Assembly: GCA_964590395.1 (NCBI GenBank)
Contig: CAZPVT010000005.1
Location: 116,387 to 180,386 of the forward strand
Reading direction: 5' to 3'
Length of the DNA stretch: 64,000 bases
Source: an uncultured bacterium
Lineage (GTDB): Bacteria; Hydrothermota; Tepidihabitantia; Tepidihabitantales; Tepidihabitantaceae
Below, one piece after another: positions 2,738-13,049 of the stretch. Both the position numbers and the translations under genes were made by a program. Under the pieces are notes generated by a model. That model was given only the letters and a program-made list of their open reading frames with translations, had not been told where the DNA came from and did not search any database. Every line of letters starts with the position of its first letter. Positions within the stretch are counted from its first letter, which is position 1.

Positions 2738-5713
2738 TTATCTTTTCTTAAAATTCAACCTATTAGACCCGATAATCGTTACCGTATTGGAGTTATAGTT
2801 GGCGATATAGACCTTGTTATCACTGGTGTTGGTGCATATAGCAGAGGGATTTTCGCCAACAGGGATCGTTTTTTCAACATAGTTACTCGCGCCGTCGATC
2901 ATAGTAACGTTTCCGTTGTCATAGTTGGCAGCATAGACCTTGTTCACCCATCCTGCCCAGACAACACTGCGGGGATGGATGCCGGTATTGATATAGGTAT
3001 AGACGGTATAATTGTTAACATCAATAACCGTTAGGTCATTGGTAGCAGAATTGGCACAGTACAGACGGCTATCCGTCGGGTTTACTGCCAAGGCATAGGG
3101 TTCGTTACCAACCGTAATTGTGGTGATGACGTTCTGATTGGCACCGTTGATGATTGTGATCCGTCCCGCGGTGCCGCTGGCACGGTTTGCGACAGCAACA
3201 TTATGACGGTTGTCAACGATCAGTGTACAGGGCTGGAGATAGGCATTGACGGTACCGATTACATTATTGGTTGCGCCATCAATTACCGTTACATTATTAC
3301 GGGCGAAGTTAGCGCAGTAGATTTTATTGTACTCCGGGCTATAGACCAAGGCGACAGGGTTAGTGTCGACAGGAACAGTAGTTATGACTTGATTGTTGTT
3401 GCCATCGATAACTGTTACTGAAGCGGAACGGTAGTTACTTACATAAACCCGATTGTTGTTGGAGTTAAAGCAGACTGCCCTTGGATTTGTTCCGACCGGA
3501 ACGGTAGCGACTACCTCATTGCTTGCTCCGTCAATTATCGTAACCGAGTTACTGCCATAATTAGTGACATAAACCTTGCCGTTGTTGGTGTTGAGACACA
3601 GATTATACGGGAATCGACCAACGCGGATAGTGGTGATAACCTGGTTGGATGTACCATCAATAACCGTAACACTGGAGTCGTTGTAATTGGCAACGAATAT
3701 TTTGTTGTGGATGCTGTCCCAGAGCAGTGCTCGTGGTTTTGCTCCTACAGTGACGGTTGCGATTACAGTATCAGGCGGACCGCTGGATTGCGCGACAGTA
3801 AATAACTCGCTAAGCCCTTGGGTCATATGTTCACCACACCAAGCCCTGATTGCGATCCTTGCCTGATTGGTCGGTGGTGACGGAACTGCCCAGGCAAACT
3901 GTCCGGGCTGGGTTGTCATACCTTGACGTTGCCAGTCAACACCACCGTTGGTGGAGTAATAAATTACCGTTGATTCCATTCCGGCAAAGGTGCCACCGGT
4001 CCAGGTTATCTGCTGAATTGAACCGACGAGCCAGCGGCTCTCCGCGGTGGGTGAGGTTACGGTAATTGGTGAAGGCGGTAACGAGTCGTAGATTACATAG
4101 CGCGCACTGATTCCAGCAGTAGATAGGGTGTCAAGATAGGCGCGGACCTGAACGCGCGCCATTTCGGTAGCCGGACTTGGTACACGCCAGTTGTAACTCT
4201 GGGGTTGGGTTGCTCTGCCATGCCGTAGCCAGTTGTTCCCGTCATCGGTAGAGTAAAAGACGACAACCGAGTCCGGGGTCCTTGGACCACCGGTCCAAGT
4301 GATTGTCTGAACAGAACCTTCACGCCAGCGCGTCTGGGCATTGGGCTGGGTAATGGTGATCGGCGGTAGTCCTTCAATAATTTTGAATGTCGCACTGAGC
4401 CCGGTTGTCGAGGAGTCAAGACAGAATGCGGTAACCCTTATCCTTGCCTGATTGGTCGGTGGTGATGGAACTGTCCAGCGGAACCTATCACCCGGACGGG
4501 TGATTTTACCGATTTTCTGCCAGGTTGTGCCGTTGTTGGTTGAGTAATAAAGAACCGAGGAGTCCATTCCTAATAGTGTTCCACCGGTCCAGGTAATCTC
4601 ATAGTTAGAGCCGATTAACCATTCTGAGGTGGAGTCAGGAGATGTTATTGTGATCGGTGAAGGTTTATTCTGGTCATAGATTTCGTAAGCAGTGGAAGTG
4701 CCAGTAGCGGTATCGCCGGATAAAAACATCCGCACCTCAATGCGGGCGGTTGGTGTAGCGGGTTCCGGGACATTCCAGGTGTAACTGCCGGATTGGATGG
4801 CAATTCCATGCCTGAGCCAGTTAGCACCACTGTCGGTTGAATAGTAGATTACAACCGAGTCAGCGGCAAGCGATTGCTGGGTTTTGCCGAGTGAACTTGA
4901 TAATAGTTGATACTCGCTCCTTTTTTTAATAAATCTCTGGTCAACTCCACCTGTCCAGAGGATTGTTTGTTGGGAGTTTACCCGCCAGCGGGTTGTGTCG
5001 TTTGGTTCGAGAACTCTGATTGCCGGACAAGTTTTAAACTGCCAGAGTGGTCCGGCTGTGGTTGTACCGTGTTGGTCCCGGGCGACTACCTGCCAGTAAT
5101 AGGTTGAGTCATATTCTAATCTGGCTGTTGTATAACTGGTTTGATTATGTCCAGAAATTAATAATGGTGGTGGCGAGGTTGTGCCTAAATAGATATCATA
5201 ATAAACAGTGTCATTAGTGTCAGGGTCACCACCTGTCCAAGATAAGGTCAGACGGATAAATAACCCGGATGCACCGGACTCGGGCGTAGGATTAGACGGG
5301 GTAAAGGGTGGGTTATTTGCTTGGGCGATGGTCGTGAACGACCAGATCGGACTGGCTGCGGTTTCGCCGCAGCGGTCTTGAGCAACAATTCGCCAGTAGT
5401 ATCGGGCAAGGAGATTAAGGTTTCTGGGGCGGTAAAATGTGTCGACTATGCCCGAATCCCGGACCGGTGGAGGCGAGCTGGTGCCGAGGTAGATGTAGTA
5501 TTTCAGACTGTCCAGGCTGTCCGGATCCGAGCAGGTCCAACGCAAAACCACACTGGTGTCAATACTCACGGCGGAACTATCCGGGAAAACTAGGCGAGGA
5601 CGGTTGGGTGGATGGTTATTAGCCGGGTCAAACGGGTTATTCCACTTCCGACACAGTATGAACAAAAGTCCAGCTGTAATAATTATAAAAATGATGGATA
5701 ACGGTTTTTTCAT
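2738..5713 (-). CDS. Large secreted/surface protein with tandem Fn3/Ig-like beta-sandwich repeats and about 9 YVTN-type beta-propeller repeats
   Basis: 991 aa. N-terminal signal/TM (IIFIIITAGLLFILC). Repeated units WSFTT / WQFKT / YYSTDxGxxW. Many copies of the N-x-VYVxNYxSNxVTVIDGxxNxVxxTIPVG motif (YVTN family). Confidence 0.7.
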   Translation of the reverse strand: MKKPLSIIFIIITAGLLFILCRKWNNPFDPANNHPPNRPRLVFPDSSAVSIDTSVVLRWTCSDPDSLDSLKYYIYLGTSSPPPVRDSGIVDTFYRPRNLNLLARYYWRIVAQDRCGETAASPIWSFTTIAQANNPPFTPSNPTPESGASGLFIRLTLSWTGGDPDTNDTVYYDIYLGTTSPPPLLISGHNQTSYTTARLEYDSTYYWQVVARDQHGTTTAGPLWQFKTCPAIRVLEPNDTTRWRVNSQQTILWTGGVDQRFIKKRSEYQLLSSSLGKTQQSLAADSVVIYYSTDSGANWLRHGIAIQSGSYTWNVPEPATPTARIEVRMFLSGDTATGTSTAYEIYDQNKPSPITITSPDSTSEWLIGSNYEITWTGGTLLGMDSSVLYYSTNNGTTWQKIGKITRPGDRFRWTVPSPPTNQARIRVTAFCLDSSTTGLSATFKIIEGLPPITITQPNAQTRWREGSVQTITWTGGPRTPDSVVVFYSTDDGNNWLRHGRATQPQSYNWRVPSPATEMARVQVRAYLDTLSTAGISARYVIYDSLPPSPITVTSPTAESRWLVGSIQQITWTGGTFAGMESTVIYYSTNGGVDWQRQGMTTQPGQFAWAVPSPPTNQARIAIRAWCGEHMTQGLSELFTVAQSSGPPDTVIATVTVGAKPRALLWDSIHNKIFVANYNDSSVTVIDGTSNQVITTIRVGRFPYNLCLNTNNGKVYVTNYGSNSVTIIDGASNEVVATVPVGTNPRAVCFNSNNNRVYVSNYRSASVTVIDGNNNQVITTVPVDTNPVALVYSPEYNKIYCANFARNNVTVIDGATNNVIGTVNAYLQPCTLIVDNRHNVAVANRASGTAGRITIINGANQNVITTITVGNEPYALAVNPTDSRLYCANSATNDLTVIDVNNYTVYTYINTGIHPRSVVWAGWVNKVYAANYDNGNVTMIDGASNYVEKTIPVGENPSAICTNTSDNKVYIANYNSNTVTIIGSNRLNFKKR

Positions 5714-5716
5714 TTT

Positions 5717-6751
5717 TTACCTGATGATAAAATAAAGTCCAATGCCTACTGTTCCAATACCGAAACCGATGTTACGGATCATATCCCAGCGTTGAGTCTG
5801 ACTGCGGAACTTTGAGGCATCTTGGGAAGTGGTTGCCTGCTTGTACTGCTGATAACTGTTTTCTGCGATGAGCGCGGAAATAGCACTGATGGTAAATGAT
5901 GATAAGCCGATTATTAGCATTGGCAGTGGTCTTTTGGGAACACGGGAAAGGGTTTCGCTCACATAGGTGGTTTCGTTGGGAGAGATTTGGATGTAATTTG
6001 TCCAGTCGCGATAATTTTTTTTACTAATTACTAAGGAATAACGGTTGGGTGGTAATTCAATAAACAGTGGAGTGGTACCGATTTGTTGTTCGTTGGCATA
6101 GGCAAGTGCGCCGTCAGGTTCGGTTAGCACACTGAGAAATCCACTGGCAGGCGCCAATTTTAAATTGAGTTCCACTGGATTTGGATCCTGGAGATTGACC
6201 GTTTTGCTAACCTCGTGGTAACCGGATAGCCGAGCGCTAACCGAGTACTGGCCAAATTTTAGGCGCGAAATAGTCAGCCCTTTTTCTGTGGTTTTGCCTT
6301 TAAATGTGCCATTGAGGTAGATGTCGGCGCCGACTGGTTCAGATGTTACAATTATTGATGAATGGCGCTCGGTAATGGTAAAATTGCCATAATAGGTTTG
6401 ATAGCCGGCGAGTTTGACTTCAAGTTCGTGACGGCCCGGACTGAGATCGGTTAATTCGAGCGGTGTTTTGCCGACTTCCAGATTGTTGACGAGCACAGTT
6501 GCGCCCGCGGGTGTTGAGGTAATGGCAACCGAGTTGCCAAAAACATTGACATCCGCCCGTAAACGAGGTAATGTTGTCGGTTTGACAGCCGGTGCCGGTA
6601 ACTTTGCCCCGCAATTCTTACAGAACTTGGCGTCGTCCCGGTTGGCCGCCCCACAATTGGGACAGGTTTTTTCTGCCCAAGCAACCGAAAGCATTACCAA
6701 AATGAGGAGCAAAATTTTTAGCGCTGATTTTAGGTATCCCAGGTTATGCAT
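5717..6751 (-). CDS. Zinc-ribbon + PEGA-domain membrane protein with a C-terminal TM anchor
   Basis: Hydrophobic N-terminal segment, then a CPNCG...CKNCG zinc-ribbon, then repeated PEGA-like units (PEGAxVxLNG-like: GATVLVNN..VGKTP, GADIYLNG..KGKT). C-terminal TM helix. An alternative internal Met start would place the zinc ribbon at the extreme N-terminus. Confidence 0.6.
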   Translation of the reverse strand: MHNLGYLKSALKILLLILVMLSVAWAEKTCPNCGAANRDDAKFCKNCGAKLPAPAVKPTTLPRLRADVNVFGNSVAITSTPAGATVLVNNLEVGKTPLELTDLSPGRHELEVKLAGYQTYYGNFTITERHSSIIVTSEPVGADIYLNGTFKGKTTEKGLTISRLKFGQYSVSARLSGYHEVSKTVNLQDPNPVELNLKLAPASGFLSVLTEPDGALAYANEQQIGTTPLFIELPPNRYSLVISKKNYRDWTNYIQISPNETTYVSETLSRVPKRPLPMLIIGLSSFTISAISALIAENSYQQYKQATTSQDASKFRSQTQRWDMIRNIGFGIGTVGIGLYFIIR

Positions 6752-6762
6752 AACTATCTCCC

Positions 6763-8034
6763 TTATTCAACGAACCGAAACCCGCAGACGGTACAGAATT
6801 GTGCCCCGATTTCCCTTCTTGTGCCACATTGGGGGCAGGTGGCTCTGCCGGCAGCAATTTTTATCCTTATCGGCGTCCGGGTTTTGATTTTGGTACCTGG
6901 TTTCGGTTCCGAATTAATGGCATTACCGATGGCAATTTCGTCATTATACTCATTGATAAAAATTATGCTATCTAGTCCTTGTTCCCGCAAGATTTTAGTC
7001 ACCTCCAACTTCGGTAGATTGGTAATTGATGGCACCACGACCATACCCGTGCTTAACCTTACCTGCACCTTGGCACCCTTTTTTATCCTTTGGCCGGGTT
7101 TCGGGTTCTGTTCCACCACCTTACCCATTGTCGCGGTATCATCCTTGTCTGGACCAAGTCCATAAACAAAACCTGCTCGTTCTAAAGTTTGTTGAGCCTC
7201 AGTATAGTAAAGTCCGACGACATTGGGAGTGGGCTTTTTATTAAAACTTATCAACACAAACGTCACCGCCGCACCTAAAACACTCAAGATCACCGCTGTC
7301 AGCCAGATGCCGGTTTTTTTCCCCGTTTTCGCAGCAACTGCCACAGGTACTGCTGGAGTTTGGACGGGTGCAGTTTGAGCCCGGGTCGGTGCTGGCTTTG
7401 GTGGTGGCGGTTTGACCGGTGGTTGTTTAGGTGGTTCTTTTATCGGCTTCGGCTGAGCAGGGACCTGAACTGAAGATGGAGGGGGCGTGGGTTGTTTAGG
7501 CGGAGACTCTTTGGGTGTCGGTTTTGGTAACAGTTCGGTAAGTGCGGAACGGAACTCGCGGGCGTTCTGAAAGCGCTGAGCAGGGTCTTTAGCCAGCGCC
7601 CGCATAATGATCTGTTCCAGTTCCTTGGGGATGTCGGGCTTGAAGGTGCTGGGCTTGGGCGGTGGCTGGCTGATGTGCGCCTGAATCAATTCGGCGCCGA
7701 TTTCCGCATCAAATGGTGGACGGCCAGCAACTGCTTCGTAAAGGACAACACCGAGCGAATAGAGGTCAGCCCGGGCGTCGATATCCCGACGTTGCGCCCT
7801 TTCCGGCGCGATATAGCGCGCGGTGCTGATTTTCGAGATACCGTAGTCAGCGAGGCGCCATACCTTATCTTCCACCTGGATGATTTTTTTAGGTTTGATG
7901 TCGCCATGGAGTTTTCCTTGGTTGTGTGCCTGGTGCAGGTCATCAAGCACTGAAGAGAATATGTTGATCAGTTCGGGCAGGGGTAGGACCCGGCGCTCAC
8001 TCAGCAGATCCGCAAGCGTTAATTCCCGCGCCAT
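6763..8034 (-). CDS. Ser/Thr-kinase-like (C-lobe only) PASTA-domain membrane protein with a C-terminal zinc ribbon. Probably a pseudokinase.
   Basis: Begins at the kinase hinge/alphaD (LHQAHNQGKLHGDIKPKKI, DYG, APE, DxYSLG motifs). No Gly-loop or VAIK lysine. An in-frame stop lies 13 codons upstream of the ATG. Then a Pro-rich linker, a TM helix, two PASTA-like repeats, and CPQCG..CTVCG at the C-terminus. Confidence 0.7.
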   Translation of the reverse strand: MARELTLADLLSERRVLPLPELINIFSSVLDDLHQAHNQGKLHGDIKPKKIIQVEDKVWRLADYGISKISTARYIAPERAQRRDIDARADLYSLGVVLYEAVAGRPPFDAEIGAELIQAHISQPPPKPSTFKPDIPKELEQIIMRALAKDPAQRFQNAREFRSALTELLPKPTPKESPPKQPTPPPSSVQVPAQPKPIKEPPKQPPVKPPPPKPAPTRAQTAPVQTPAVPVAVAAKTGKKTGIWLTAVILSVLGAAVTFVLISFNKKPTPNVVGLYYTEAQQTLERAGFVYGLGPDKDDTATMGKVVEQNPKPGQRIKKGAKVQVRLSTGMVVVPSITNLPKLEVTKILREQGLDSIIFINEYNDEIAIGNAINSEPKPGTKIKTRTPIRIKIAAGRATCPQCGTRREIGAQFCTVCGFRFVE

Positions 8035-8174
8035 ACCATTTTAGAATACAGAATTTAATAACAGATGTCAACTATTTTGCGCGGATTATGGAAAATCGTA
8101 GAGTAAACGGAGTCGGCTTGTTAGAGGTTTTTCTATTTTGTCGTAACAAGAAGGAAATCCGAAGGGGGATGGAT

Positions 8175-9812
8175 TTAATGTAGGTCTTCCGGTCGGGACA
8201 CGCCGGTGGTTTTCAGGAGGTTACGGGCAATTGGTGCGTAAGGTGAGCCAGGAAATGTCCAGAGTAACTGTTTAAGGAGCTGGACCGCTCGGTTGTGGTC
8301 TTTGAGGTATTTTTGATAGATTTCTGCCTGGTTGAGTAGGGCTTTGGGTGCCAGTTCGGTACCGGGAAAACTTTGGAGGATGCTTTCCAGGGTGCTAACC
8401 GCCTCCCGATACTTGCCAGTTTCAACGAGCGCCTGGCTTAAAAGCAGTAATACGTTCTGGGTGAGGATGGTGTCTGAGGTGGAAATTTGCCGGCAGTTTT
8501 TTATACAGTTTTCATAGTCACCCGCATCATAGGCAATTAATGCGGGGATAAGTTTTTTTGCCTCTTTGCTGTTAATTGTCAATAGGCTGAGTGCGAGCGC
8601 CTCATTGAGCAGTGGGCTATCCGGAAATTGCATGGTCAATTGTTCAACTGCCGAATAGACCGAGTCAAACTTTTCCTGATAAAAGAGGAGTTTTGCCCTT
8701 AAGTAGAGGACACGGTCGTCAGGCCGATTGATGCGTGAGATAACAGAGTAAGCGCTGTCAATTTTTTGTAGTCCGAGCAGGGCAAGGGCAAGTCCGGTCA
8801 ATGCTGGGATGTTGTTGGGGCGATGGCGGAGAAACCGCTGGTAGGCAGTGACTGCTCGGGCGAAGTCGCGTAATTTTAGCCGGGCAAGTTCTGCCAGTTC
8901 GAAACTACCGGCTGGGGTCGTGTCAGTCTCCAGTAGTTTTAAAGCCTCGGTAACCTGGTCAAGTTGCCGTAATATCCGGGCGATATCGCTCGTGAGTTTC
9001 AGGTGTTGATAGATGGCTAATGCCGCTTTTAGTGCGTTCCGTTCCTCACAGTTTCGGGCAAAGAGGTAGAGTTCCTGCTGGGAGTAGTGATTTTTGAGCA
9101 GTGCGACCGCGGTTAATTCCTCGCCCGCACCGAGATATAGTTCAGCCTGGGCGCGGGCACGCAATCGGCTGTCCTTTATCCGGTTCAGGCTGTTAATGAT
9201 TTTACTCGCATCAGCCATCTTGCCATAGTTGTTAAGCCGGTCAAAAAACAGTTCGGCACGCCGGCTGTTATGGTTGATAATTTCGCTAATAACCTCTGCG
9301 GCAGCGCTGAATTTTTTACTATGTTCGTAGAGTTCTATCAGCTGTTCTGCGTAGTCCACCCGGAAAGGTGGGGTGTTTAGGGTGGGTCTGAGATAGCGGA
9401 TGGCAAGGTCGTATTCGCCCCAACGCTTGAGGAGTTCAGTCAGTTCCAGTAACCGGTCCGGGTAGTGGCGAGCAAACTCGTTTGTCCGGGTAGCCGCTTC
9501 CGCGCGGCGCTTTAGTCCGAAGAGGGCTTCGATGAAGCCCAGTTCCAGGCTCACCGCATTGGCTGGGGTCTTTTTCAATCGGTTGAGTGCCGTATAGAGG
9601 GTGTCGTACCGTTCGATCTGCCGACAGATCCGAATTAGTCCGGCAATTGCCGATAGGTCCTGCGGATTTTTTTCAACCGCCTGTTGGTAAATTTTAAGTG
9701 CAGGTTCATACTGGCCTGCCTGTTCCAGAAGTTGTGCCCGATAGAGGTCCTGGGCAAAGATGGTAATTGCCAACGTCCAGATAGTGATAATTACCGTTGT
9801 TTTATGTCCCAT
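8175..9812 (-). CDS. Tetratricopeptide-repeat (TPR) protein, secreted/periplasmic
   Basis: 545 aa. N-terminal signal peptide. Repeated 34-residue A/L/Y-rich helical hairpins throughout (AxxxYxxAL-type). Confidence 0.7.
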   Translation of the reverse strand: MGHKTTVIITIWTLAITIFAQDLYRAQLLEQAGQYEPALKIYQQAVEKNPQDLSAIAGLIRICRQIERYDTLYTALNRLKKTPANAVSLELGFIEALFGLKRRAEAATRTNEFARHYPDRLLELTELLKRWGEYDLAIRYLRPTLNTPPFRVDYAEQLIELYEHSKKFSAAAEVISEIINHNSRRAELFFDRLNNYGKMADASKIINSLNRIKDSRLRARAQAELYLGAGEELTAVALLKNHYSQQELYLFARNCEERNALKAALAIYQHLKLTSDIARILRQLDQVTEALKLLETDTTPAGSFELAELARLKLRDFARAVTAYQRFLRHRPNNIPALTGLALALLGLQKIDSAYSVISRINRPDDRVLYLRAKLLFYQEKFDSVYSAVEQLTMQFPDSPLLNEALALSLLTINSKEAKKLIPALIAYDAGDYENCIKNCRQISTSDTILTQNVLLLLSQALVETGKYREAVSTLESILQSFPGTELAPKALLNQAEIYQKYLKDHNRAVQLLKQLLWTFPGSPYAPIARNLLKTTGVSRPEDLH

Positions 9813-9815
9813 ACT

Positions 9816-12800
9816 TCATTTATTCAACAGAAGTTCAAAATACGCCCGGATCAGTTTTTCATACTCAACCGGATAGCGCTGTTGCTGGAGGGCACGCAGG
9901 AGTTCGGACCGCAGTAGACGGTTTCTTTCCCCTTGGTCCTCGGGCAACTCGGGCGGATTTTCCAGACGGTAGGGACGTGCGGTTTCTGCCTGGCGTTCCT
10001 CTTTAAATCCCTGCTGACGGAGGCTGCGCTGGGCGTCAAGCAGGCGGGCGACGATGTCTTCCTGACGTTCAATCAGTTTGCGGTCAATTTGCAGTTCTGC
10101 CAGGCCTCTTTCCACCTGTCTCATCTCTTCCAGCATTCGGTCTAATGCACCGGTCAGACCGGGTCTTTCTCCACCCATCTGTTGCAGGAGTTGTTCCAGT
10201 TGCTGACGGAGTGCCTGCTGTTGAGAAAGTAGTCTGGATAACTGCGCCAGTTGCTGAGAGGTAAGACCGGTACTGGGAATTGGAATCGGCAAACTGGCAG
10301 TGCCGGCATTGATGCTCATCTGCTCGGATGCCATTTTCGCCAGTTGGTCAAGCAGGTTTTGCAACCCACCAGATAAACCACCTCCCTCCATTTTTGCTGC
10401 GGCACCGATTAACATTCCTGCGGCACGGTTCAGGCGCTGTCGTGCCTGGCGCATATTCTCTTTTGTACCACTGCCACTGCCCTCCATTGCCATTTTTGCG
10501 GCACTGCTCATCAGGTTGAGCGCATTGCCCAGTTCCTGATGGAGTGGCGGCGGGATTGCCAGTGTTCTGGTGCTCAGACTGGCGAGACTCTCCGCTGCCA
10601 TTTTGGTTGCTTCACCCAGCGCGGACTGTTCGTTGGCAATCTCCACCAGCCGGTCGCTGGTGGTCATTTTTTCCTCCAGTTTTTCCTGGTACTGAGAGAT
10701 GGTCAAGAGTTGATCAGCATTGGCAAGCAACTGTTTCATTACTTCCCGCGCGCGGTTTTTCTTTAACTGCTCACTCAGACATCGCAACCGATCGGCAAGT
10801 TGTCTAATGGATCCGGCGAGTTCTCGGGAGGGCAGTTGCGCGGACAATTTATCACCCGAGTTAAACAGTTGTTTTAAGGCGTCAGCCTGTTTCGGCAATT
10901 CCCGGATAGCCATCTCCTGGTTCAGTGCGGCGAGCGATTCGGTAAGTGCGGGTTCGGTGCATTGACGGGCAAGTTGCTCGATACCGTTCAAAAGACTGTC
11001 GAGATTGGTTTTTATCTCCTCCTGCTGTTGGATAAGTTGGGATTCATTTGCGGTTGGAATGTTGCCGGTTAGCTCATTTTGTTTTTGCGCCAGTTTTTCT
11101 GCCTGTCGTGCGAGTGCTTCCAGTTGGATCTCATCCATTATCCGTTTCAGGAGTTCTAAAGCGCGGTCAATGTCCGCCTTCAGGGCAGACTGCTGTTCCT
11201 GCAGACGTTCAAGTAGCGCTTTTAATTCATCGGGTCGGGCGGTCAGTTTACTACCCAGTTCGTTTAGTGCCTTCTGAAGTTCCTGCGGTAAAAGCCGAGA
11301 AAGCAGTTCCTGTAACTGGGACAGACGTTCCAGTGTTTCCTGATCCCAACTCATCCCTTGGAGCAGTTCCGCAGTGGTCTGGGCGACTTCGTTCTGCAGA
11401 CGGTCAATCTGGTTGAGCAGGTTTATCTGTTCATTCACGATCTGTTCCAGTTTTTTGCGTTCCTCCCAGCTGAGTTCCCGCTGTTTTTTTAACTCCTCAC
11501 TGATGCGCGCCAGCGCACTTCCGAGTTCTGCCTGTTCATTCTGGAGCGGTGCCAGTTGCTCCTGGGTGGTGGTGGTCTGGTTTACCGCCTGAGCGTAAAT
11601 CTGTTCCATACTGGGAAACCGCACCGTATAGATTTCACTGCGGGTACTTTTCGGACCGCTGATCGCATCATTGTCAACCACCCGCACAAAATACCGGACG
11701 GCTTCACCGGGCAGAAGGTTTGTTTTGCTCAGATCCCAGAGATAGAAGGTGGTGTCCTCCCGGTGGTTGTTGACCGTCTTCAGCCGGCGAGAGTTATTGA
11801 TGCTGTCCTTGCCGTAATGGAGCCAGATCTCGGTGATGCCAAAGTCGTCAATAGAGTTAATGCCCAGCGGAACCTGCATATTCATCGGCAGGTTGACATC
11901 ACGGCCGGGTAGAAACACTTTGACCAGTGGTGATTCATCCGGTATTGCCCGGATGTTGAATCGGTAAACCGTCTGCTGTCTATTTGGGAGCGTGGCGAGT
12001 TCAATTCTTGCCTCTCCATCCTGCCGGATGGTAAAACCGCCGCTGAGTTCTCCGGGTTGATCTCTGCTGAGCGCTAATGGCAGGGTCTCTGCTGGCAGAA
12101 TGAGAAAACCATTTTCCGCTGTGCCGGTAACTTGGGCGGTGAGATTTACCTTTGTTCCTTTCAGAAGTGCCAGATCACCGCCACTTTGACGGATGGGCTT
12201 CATTCCGGTATAAGCGGGTGGTGTGCAGTTAAAGGCAATGCTTTTAAGAGCCAGGGGCGCGATGATATTTACCCTATACCAGTCGGTTTTTTTGTTTAAA
12301 AGTCGGAACCGATAATAAAATGTTTCACCGGTGGTTAATGTAAAGATGCAGGAGTCAGCGGAAAGCCGGAGAGGGATTTTTTTTATCCGTGGTGAATTGG
12401 GGATGGCTGTTGTTTGCAACTGGATAGATTTGAATACGCCTGCAGGCTGGACTGAACAGACCAGTTTAGCAGTTTCGCCCGCAAGCAGGGTGGTATCACC
12501 AGGGACAACCTTTAGATAGATAGGCAGGTGGTCAGGTTTAAAAGCGTTCAGTAGACCAAATTTTACCCTTTCGCCTCCCTGGTTAAGCGTCAGGACAAGC
12601 AATACCAGCGCCAGAAGGCTAAAAACACCGGAAATCAGCAGGCGTCTGAAGGGCAGGATAAGTTTGAGCGGTAGCGGTCTTATCATTTCCTGCACCTGTT
12701 GAATTGCGGCATCGCGCAACTCCAGTGAGTAACCACGGCGATCAGGCTGGTAGTTTATCAGGTCCAGAGCAGAGACAACCTTTCCTTTTAACCCTGGGAA

Positions 12801-13049
12801 GGTGTGTTCAATTCTGTAACCGATATTTTTTAAGCCGGTTCTTTTTAGCCATAAGAATGATAAAATACCCAGCGGGATTAGTGAGAAGAGGAGTATCCAG
12901 CCGGAAAGGAAAAGACCAATGGCGAGCAGGGTTAATAAGATGTTGATACCGATAAAAATAAGTAAAAGCGAGAGTGTATTGATGAGGATTGCCCGGTAAC
13001 GGAGTTGCCGGATCTGCCTAACAAACTGCTCGTTAATTAACTCCCGCAC
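9816..13049 (-). CDS. Large membrane-anchored protein: N-terminal double-TM, beta-rich domain, then ~500-aa Q/L/E-rich coiled coil. Function unknown.
   Basis: 1077-aa ORF with GTG start. Two N-terminal TM helices plus a third hydrophobic segment. Long heptad-like low-complexity region. First gene of a minus-strand operon with the TPR, kinase-like and PEGA genes. Confidence 0.6.
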   Translation of the reverse strand: MRELINEQFVRQIRQLRYRAILINTLSLLLIFIGINILLTLLAIGLFLSGWILLFSLIPLGILSFLWLKRTGLKNIGYRIEHTFPGLKGKVVSALDLINYQPDRRGYSLELRDAAIQQVQEMIRPLPLKLILPFRRLLISGVFSLLALVLLVLTLNQGGERVKFGLLNAFKPDHLPIYLKVVPGDTTLLAGETAKLVCSVQPAGVFKSIQLQTTAIPNSPRIKKIPLRLSADSCIFTLTTGETFYYRFRLLNKKTDWYRVNIIAPLALKSIAFNCTPPAYTGMKPIRQSGGDLALLKGTKVNLTAQVTGTAENGFLILPAETLPLALSRDQPGELSGGFTIRQDGEARIELATLPNRQQTVYRFNIRAIPDESPLVKVFLPGRDVNLPMNMQVPLGINSIDDFGITEIWLHYGKDSINNSRRLKTVNNHREDTTFYLWDLSKTNLLPGEAVRYFVRVVDNDAISGPKSTRSEIYTVRFPSMEQIYAQAVNQTTTTQEQLAPLQNEQAELGSALARISEELKKQRELSWEERKKLEQIVNEQINLLNQIDRLQNEVAQTTAELLQGMSWDQETLERLSQLQELLSRLLPQELQKALNELGSKLTARPDELKALLERLQEQQSALKADIDRALELLKRIMDEIQLEALARQAEKLAQKQNELTGNIPTANESQLIQQQEEIKTNLDSLLNGIEQLARQCTEPALTESLAALNQEMAIRELPKQADALKQLFNSGDKLSAQLPSRELAGSIRQLADRLRCLSEQLKKNRAREVMKQLLANADQLLTISQYQEKLEEKMTTSDRLVEIANEQSALGEATKMAAESLASLSTRTLAIPPPLHQELGNALNLMSSAAKMAMEGSGSGTKENMRQARQRLNRAAGMLIGAAAKMEGGGLSGGLQNLLDQLAKMASEQMSINAGTASLPIPIPSTGLTSQQLAQLSRLLSQQQALRQQLEQLLQQMGGERPGLTGALDRMLEEMRQVERGLAELQIDRKLIERQEDIVARLLDAQRSLRQQGFKEERQAETARPYRLENPPELPEDQGERNRLLRSELLRALQQQRYPVEYEKLIRAYFELLLNK

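Follow-up and report, generated by a model that had tools for sequence, protein, structure and literature searches.

PASTA kinases such as PknB, Stk1, PrkC and StkP (NCBIfam NF033483) were classically described in Firmicutes and Actinobacteria and are the standard model linking peptidoglycan status to cytoplasmic phosphorylation. Non-catalytic kinase folds have also been recorded on the cytoplasmic side of membrane proteins that serve as envelope scaffolds, namely, the MviN/MurJ-linked ActPs3, whose activation loop is deleted, and EssB/YukC of type VIIb secretion; both are bilobal and keep the N-lobe, through which MviN dimerises. None of the seven families of the bacterial STK atlas (ActPs1-3, GLW, CP1, DYD and DLHK) is described there as C-lobe-only, and "C-lobe" or truncated domains are not mentioned in the texts of the atlas or of the pseudokinase review. 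KIND is a eukaryotic domain that, as Ciccarelli et al. reportedly established in 2003, was derived from PAK-like kinases. It exemplifies that an isolated C-lobe can be an independent interaction unit, being a stand-alone C-lobe without an N-lobe, alphaG or catalysis that acts as a protein-interaction module, and it is the closest putative functional analogue of the protein considered below (PMC3415841).

The window, i.e., the whole 64-kb stretch of DNA analyzed here, contained an ORF at positions 6763-8034 of the minus strand with a product of 423 aa, which an earlier note described as a PASTA "pseudokinase" lacking the N-lobe and having a zinc ribbon at its C-terminus (hereafter, the half-kinase). 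Three Pfam families agreed with this description: Pkinase (E = 1.3e-21), PASTA (PF03793; E = 1.1e-24 in two stretches; 86.6 bits against a cut-off of 23.2) and, marginally, Zn_Ribbon_1 (PF13240, DZR type with CxxC-(n)-CxxC knuckles; residues 400-420, 24.9 bits, just under the cut-off of 25; E = 1.7e-05). The Pkinase match, which lay on residues 6-156, extended over no more than positions 84-253 of the 263 in the profile, and the NCBIfam model PknB_PASTA_kin (NF033483) was aligned over its positions 93-500 (240.8 bits, below the cut-off of 450), which bears out the claim that the protein begins at the hinge and has no N-lobe. The order proposed for the remainder, namely, a Pro-rich linker, a TM helix, two PASTA repeats and CPQCG..CTVCG, was likewise reproduced by the Pfam matches and the AF2 model (Table 1). 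In this model, the C-lobe was predicted to be complete and well folded from alphaD through alphaI, with both the P+1 loop and alphaG (residues 113-122) present. It was 31-33% identical to PknB and Stk1 and superposed at 1.2-2.8 A, its best structural matches were bona fide kinases, and no KIND-named Pfam family was found for the ORF at E up to 0.1; the C-lobe arose independently of KIND, from a PknB-like ancestor.

Table 1. Coordinates of the half-kinase gene parts and of the adjoining cluster genes in the window.
Feature	Position	Strand	Basis and remarks
991-aa envelope protein, fn3-like repeats and YncE-type beta-propeller, last cluster gene	2738..5713	(-)	Pfam and NCBIfam
ZnR-PEGA partner gene	5717..6751	(-)	Pfam matches and alignment
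Cys4 zinc ribbon GRATCPQCG..FCTVCG, C-terminal	6766..6846	(-)	residues 397-423; same membrane side as PASTA
Two PASTA repeats, predicted periplasmic	6847..7239	(-)	residues 266-333 and 334-396; Pfam; pLDDT >93
Single TM helix	7243..7308	(-)	residues 243-264; AF2 helix 243-264
Disordered Pro/Lys-rich juxtamembrane linker	7309..7524	(-)	residues 171-242; pLDDT 39-60; mean pairwise identity 0.22
Kinase C-lobe only, cytoplasmic	7525..8034	(-)	residues 1-170, alphaD to alphaI; without Gly-rich loop, VAIK Lys and alphaC
DYG, shortened activation segment and P+1/APE loop	7801..7848	(-)	residues 63-78; phospho-acceptor loop deleted
Degenerate catalytic loop HGDIKPKK	7885..7908	(-)	residues 43-50; HRD-Arg to Gly, Mg-binding Asn to Lys
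Promoter-like TTGACA-17 nt-TATTCT	8043..8071	(-)	sequence scan; ends 8 nt before ATG
TPR protein with signal peptide, upstream of the half-kinase gene	8175..9812	(-)	Pfam TPR families
DUF4175-like protein, membrane-anchored, 1077 aa, first cluster gene	9816..13049	(-)	DUF4175 E = 9.8e-06; TM segments

The half-kinase and the NF033483 kinases have in common a cytoplasmic domain, a juxtamembrane linker, a single TM helix and PASTA repeats in this order, whereas the half-kinase lacks the N-lobe with its Gly-rich loop, VAIK lysine and alphaC, carries an additional zinc ribbon behind the PASTA repeats, and is encoded in an envelope gene cluster of a diderm phylum. Unlike KIND, it retains alphaG, the HxD motif and, mostly, D-Y-G, and unlike ActPs3/MviN and EssB/YukC, with which it shares the non-catalytic kinase fold and, in the case of ActPs3, the deletion of the activation loop, it has no N-lobe. 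The catalogued bacterial families are full-length and bilobal by their descriptions, and the half-kinase is set apart from them accordingly. The segment of residues 245-263 (Kyte-Doolittle 2.41) was the only hydrophobic one in the protein, and the K/R bias flanking the TM helix was weak (three before, two after); from the single TM helix and homology, a periplasmic location is predicted for both the PASTA repeats and the zinc ribbon. It should be noted that an extracytoplasmic location is unusual for a Cys4 zinc ribbon.

The same architecture was found in ~53 sequence clusters (34 when clustered at 90% identity and about 23 when clustered at 50%), and every cluster named to a taxon belonged to candidate division WOR-3. 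Among the WOR-3 genomes with the gene are CP070680.1 and GCA_037481955.1 (contig JBBFKS010000001.1). The number of residues preceding the TLxD hinge motif was 0-31 in the family as against 73-167 in 85 full-length kinases. The PASTA model was matched by all 34 aligned members and the zinc-ribbon model by 32 of them at E < 1e-3, while the four cysteines of the ribbon were invariant in 52/52 complete sequences. Consequently, the half-kinase PASTA protein is a conserved family and no single oddity. When metagenome contigs were searched with a degenerate DNA pattern for GRATCPxCG, family members were present at 4 of 120 loci, most matches being due to chance, and these four loci were used for the gene context; in a scan of genome contigs with the family alignment, the matches listed, made on a generic kinase motif, were ordinary full-length PASTA kinases of Actinomycetota and Firmicutes, with no family member among them. 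No published description of a C-lobe-only PASTA family was found in the literature, and PASTA, kinase, PEGA and FHA are unmentioned in the supplement of the WOR-3 isolate paper. The family adds a class to the catalogues of bacterial pseudokinases, which are currently bilobal only. The WOR-3 isolate sy37 is a diderm with DAP-type peptidoglycan (PMC12285271), and TolC/AcrB and TonB-dependent receptors are encoded within the window.

The half-kinase gene is typically the third of a five-gene envelope cluster (DUF4175-like, TPR, half-kinase, ZnR-PEGA and beta-propeller). The ZnR-PEGA gene lay directly downstream of it in 12/12 contexts, usually within the five-gene cluster, and the beta-propeller gene was syntenic in at least 10 of the 12; the TPR gene adjoined it in 7 of the 10 contexts that could be assessed, and orthologues of the DUF4175-like gene occupied the same position at loci L001, L003, L085, L104 and L209. 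The C-terminal part of the TPR protein resembled YbgF/CpoB (TIGR02795, E = 3.1e-16; 60 bits, below the cut-off of 90). The ZnR-PEGA protein comprised, in this order, a signal peptide with an AxA site, a zinc ribbon, three PEGA domains, a TM segment, a cytoplasmic loop of ~30 aa (residues ~297-327) with the conserved motif SYxxY..WDxxRN, and a second TM segment. A cytoplasmic loop, of ~80 aa, is also predicted for the DUF4175-like protein. No Bat/MoxR-type cluster was found among the about 32 other ORFs of the window, and no pstP/rodA/pbpA-type neighbours were present in the loci examined. The half-kinase thereby draws attention to a five-gene envelope cluster, as yet uncharacterised, of an only recently cultured phylum, and its PASTA repeats, together with this cluster, suggest a role in cell-wall sensing, as was proposed in the earlier note.

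The best reading of these data, and a probable one, is that the C-lobe, without catalytic activity, serves as a docking module in the manner of KIND and is tethered to a peptidoglycan sensor, the docking role being suggested by analogy and by conservation. The ancestor would have been a PASTA kinase of the PknB/Stk1 type that lost the ATP-binding N-lobe, the activation loop and the Mg-binding Asn, and its descendant would be a single-pass inner-membrane protein of WOR-3 (Caldifarciminota). By comparison with PknB, PrkC and StkP, the two PASTA repeats would lie in the periplasm and bind peptidoglycan precursors or muropeptides, and the Cys4 ribbons of the half-kinase and of the ZnR-PEGA protein, both presumed periplasmic, might pair mutually or with a common partner. 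On the other side of the membrane, the orphan C-lobe could, without phosphorylation, hold a cytoplasmic partner at the envelope complex or pass on the clustering driven by PASTA; the candidate partners are the ZnR-PEGA loop with SYxxY..WDxxRN or the product of a gene located elsewhere in the genome. More tentatively, and with rather less than even confidence, the family may be regarded as the first bacterial counterpart of KIND, that is, a receptor of PASTA-kinase origin, spread across the phylum and devoid of catalysis, in which the orphan C-lobe signals or scaffolds and the paired periplasmic Cys4 ribbons couple it to the PEGA protein within an undescribed envelope complex of diderm WOR-3.

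The C-lobe might instead be a regulatory partner of a full-length Hanks kinase, e.g., through a PknB-style "front-to-front" contact of alphaG, or of a PP2C phosphatase, and report the cell-wall status as an allosteric activator or inhibitor or as a decoy. The conserved alphaG helix and P+1 loop of the family (A119 and H120 were present at 90% or more, and the motif G-T-x-x-Y-x-x-P-E was conserved) and the strong constraint on the C-lobe are consistent with such a role, and eukaryotes provide well-established cases of pseudokinases that partner active kinases (10.1101/2025.01.12.632604). However, neither the remainder of the window nor the syntenic loci yielded a kinase, PP2C or FHA gene, and the conserved neighbours all encode envelope proteins, so that this explanation appears unlikely. 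Such a kinase- or phosphatase-partner role would be the docking proposal in a narrower form.

The distribution of constraint along the protein bears on a further explanation, according to which the half-kinase is a periplasmic structural protein whose PASTA repeats and zinc ribbon do everything, while the C-lobe is an inert, vestigial anchor. The mean pairwise identity was 0.71 for the zinc ribbon, 0.55 for the C-lobe, 0.39 for PASTA and 0.22 for the linker, and dN was 0.20, 0.42 and 0.62 for the C-lobe, PASTA and linker, respectively; since dS was saturated (around 2 or undefined), constraint was judged from dN and identity only. Within the protein, constraint is strongest in the C-lobe and the zinc ribbon, and the gene is under purifying selection. 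That no segment is more conserved than the zinc ribbon and that all conserved neighbours are periplasm-facing envelope proteins would suit a purely periplasmic function. Nevertheless, the C-lobe was better conserved than PASTA by both measures, and its structural core residues (HRD-His, APE-Glu, alphaF-Asp and the alphaH-I Arg) were invariant in 53/53 members, whereas decay or loss would be expected of an inert stub; we therefore consider a vestigial C-lobe decidedly improbable. That half of the kinase was removed and the rest has long been under strong selection implies an ATP-independent function for the Hanks C-lobe itself, which may be docking, dimerisation or localisation, for instance, and the family represents a natural "separation-of-function" case for the non-catalytic roles of PknB-like proteins.

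Reading of the ORF confirmed the catalytic loop HGDIKPKK given in the earlier note, with Gly in place of Arg and Lys in place of Asn, and gave DYG at the DFG position. The Mg-binding Asn was present in none of the 53 family members (K in 31, R in 19, H in two and L in one) as against 85/85 full-length PASTA kinases, and the HRD-Arg, mostly lost, was retained in 10/53. The segment from DFG-Gly to APE-Pro had 11 residues in 32 of 34 members versus 23-27 in the 85 full-length kinases, the activation loop being 12-16 residues shorter than in the NF033483 kinases. With the N-lobe, activation loop and Mg-binding Asn lost, phosphate transfer is almost certainly impossible. The HRD-Asp and DFG-Asp were kept in 52/53 and 42/53 members, respectively, which is above most pseudokinases; therefore, some residual chemistry or ligand binding may persist at the old active site. 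The earlier note had left two alternatives, a scaffold or pseudokinase, and an N-lobe supplied in trans. In the second of these, a separately encoded N-lobe would bind the C-lobe and restore activity, for which the retained aspartates and the start of the protein exactly at the hinge could be cited. Against it stand the absence of the Asn from every member, the loss of the DFG-Asp in 11/53 and of the HRD-Asp in one, and the deleted activation loop; the same losses favour the scaffold or pseudokinase alternative. In addition, an HMM of the N-lobe, derived from 86 full-length PASTA kinases, matched only the hinge region of ORF 6763-8034 in the six frames of the window and nothing beyond the gene's own hinge in those of the syntenic loci L001, L003, L085 and L086, and no other gene of the envelope cluster had a Pkinase match. 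A split kinase is thus very improbable.

The start of the gene was assessed from its upstream region. The promoter-like site ends 8 nt before the ATG, and a near-leaderless mRNA is therefore predicted. In all five of the diverged loci compared (the window, L001, L003, L085 and L086), a perfect TTGACA preceded the ATG by 32-43 nt, which indicates that the half-kinase gene probably has its own conserved promoter. The spacer separating it from the TPR gene was 140 bp in the window, and spacers of 50-170 bp, behind the conserved TPR gene or other genes, preceded the family genes. The earlier note had placed one in-frame stop 13 codons upstream of the ATG; such stops lie 3, 12 and 18 codons upstream, and its conclusion that no N-lobe can be appended holds. 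Truncated kinase calls do exist at contig ends (e.g., P0192 and P0133), but the comparative data refute an assembly frameshift, including the one suspected at 8035-8075, as well as a miscalled start and the recent decay of a normal PASTA kinase into a pseudogene: the start and the architecture are the same in ~53 clusters of independently assembled sequences with C-lobe identities as low as 36%, the promoter recurs in independent assemblies, the spacer is 50-170 bp, the window has three in-frame stops upstream of the ATG, and selection on the gene is purifying.

The two sequences just named, which carry multiple PASTA repeats and seemingly lack the N-lobe, were rejected as contig-edge truncations: both retain HRD..N and DFG, and P0192 begins at base 3 of its own contig.

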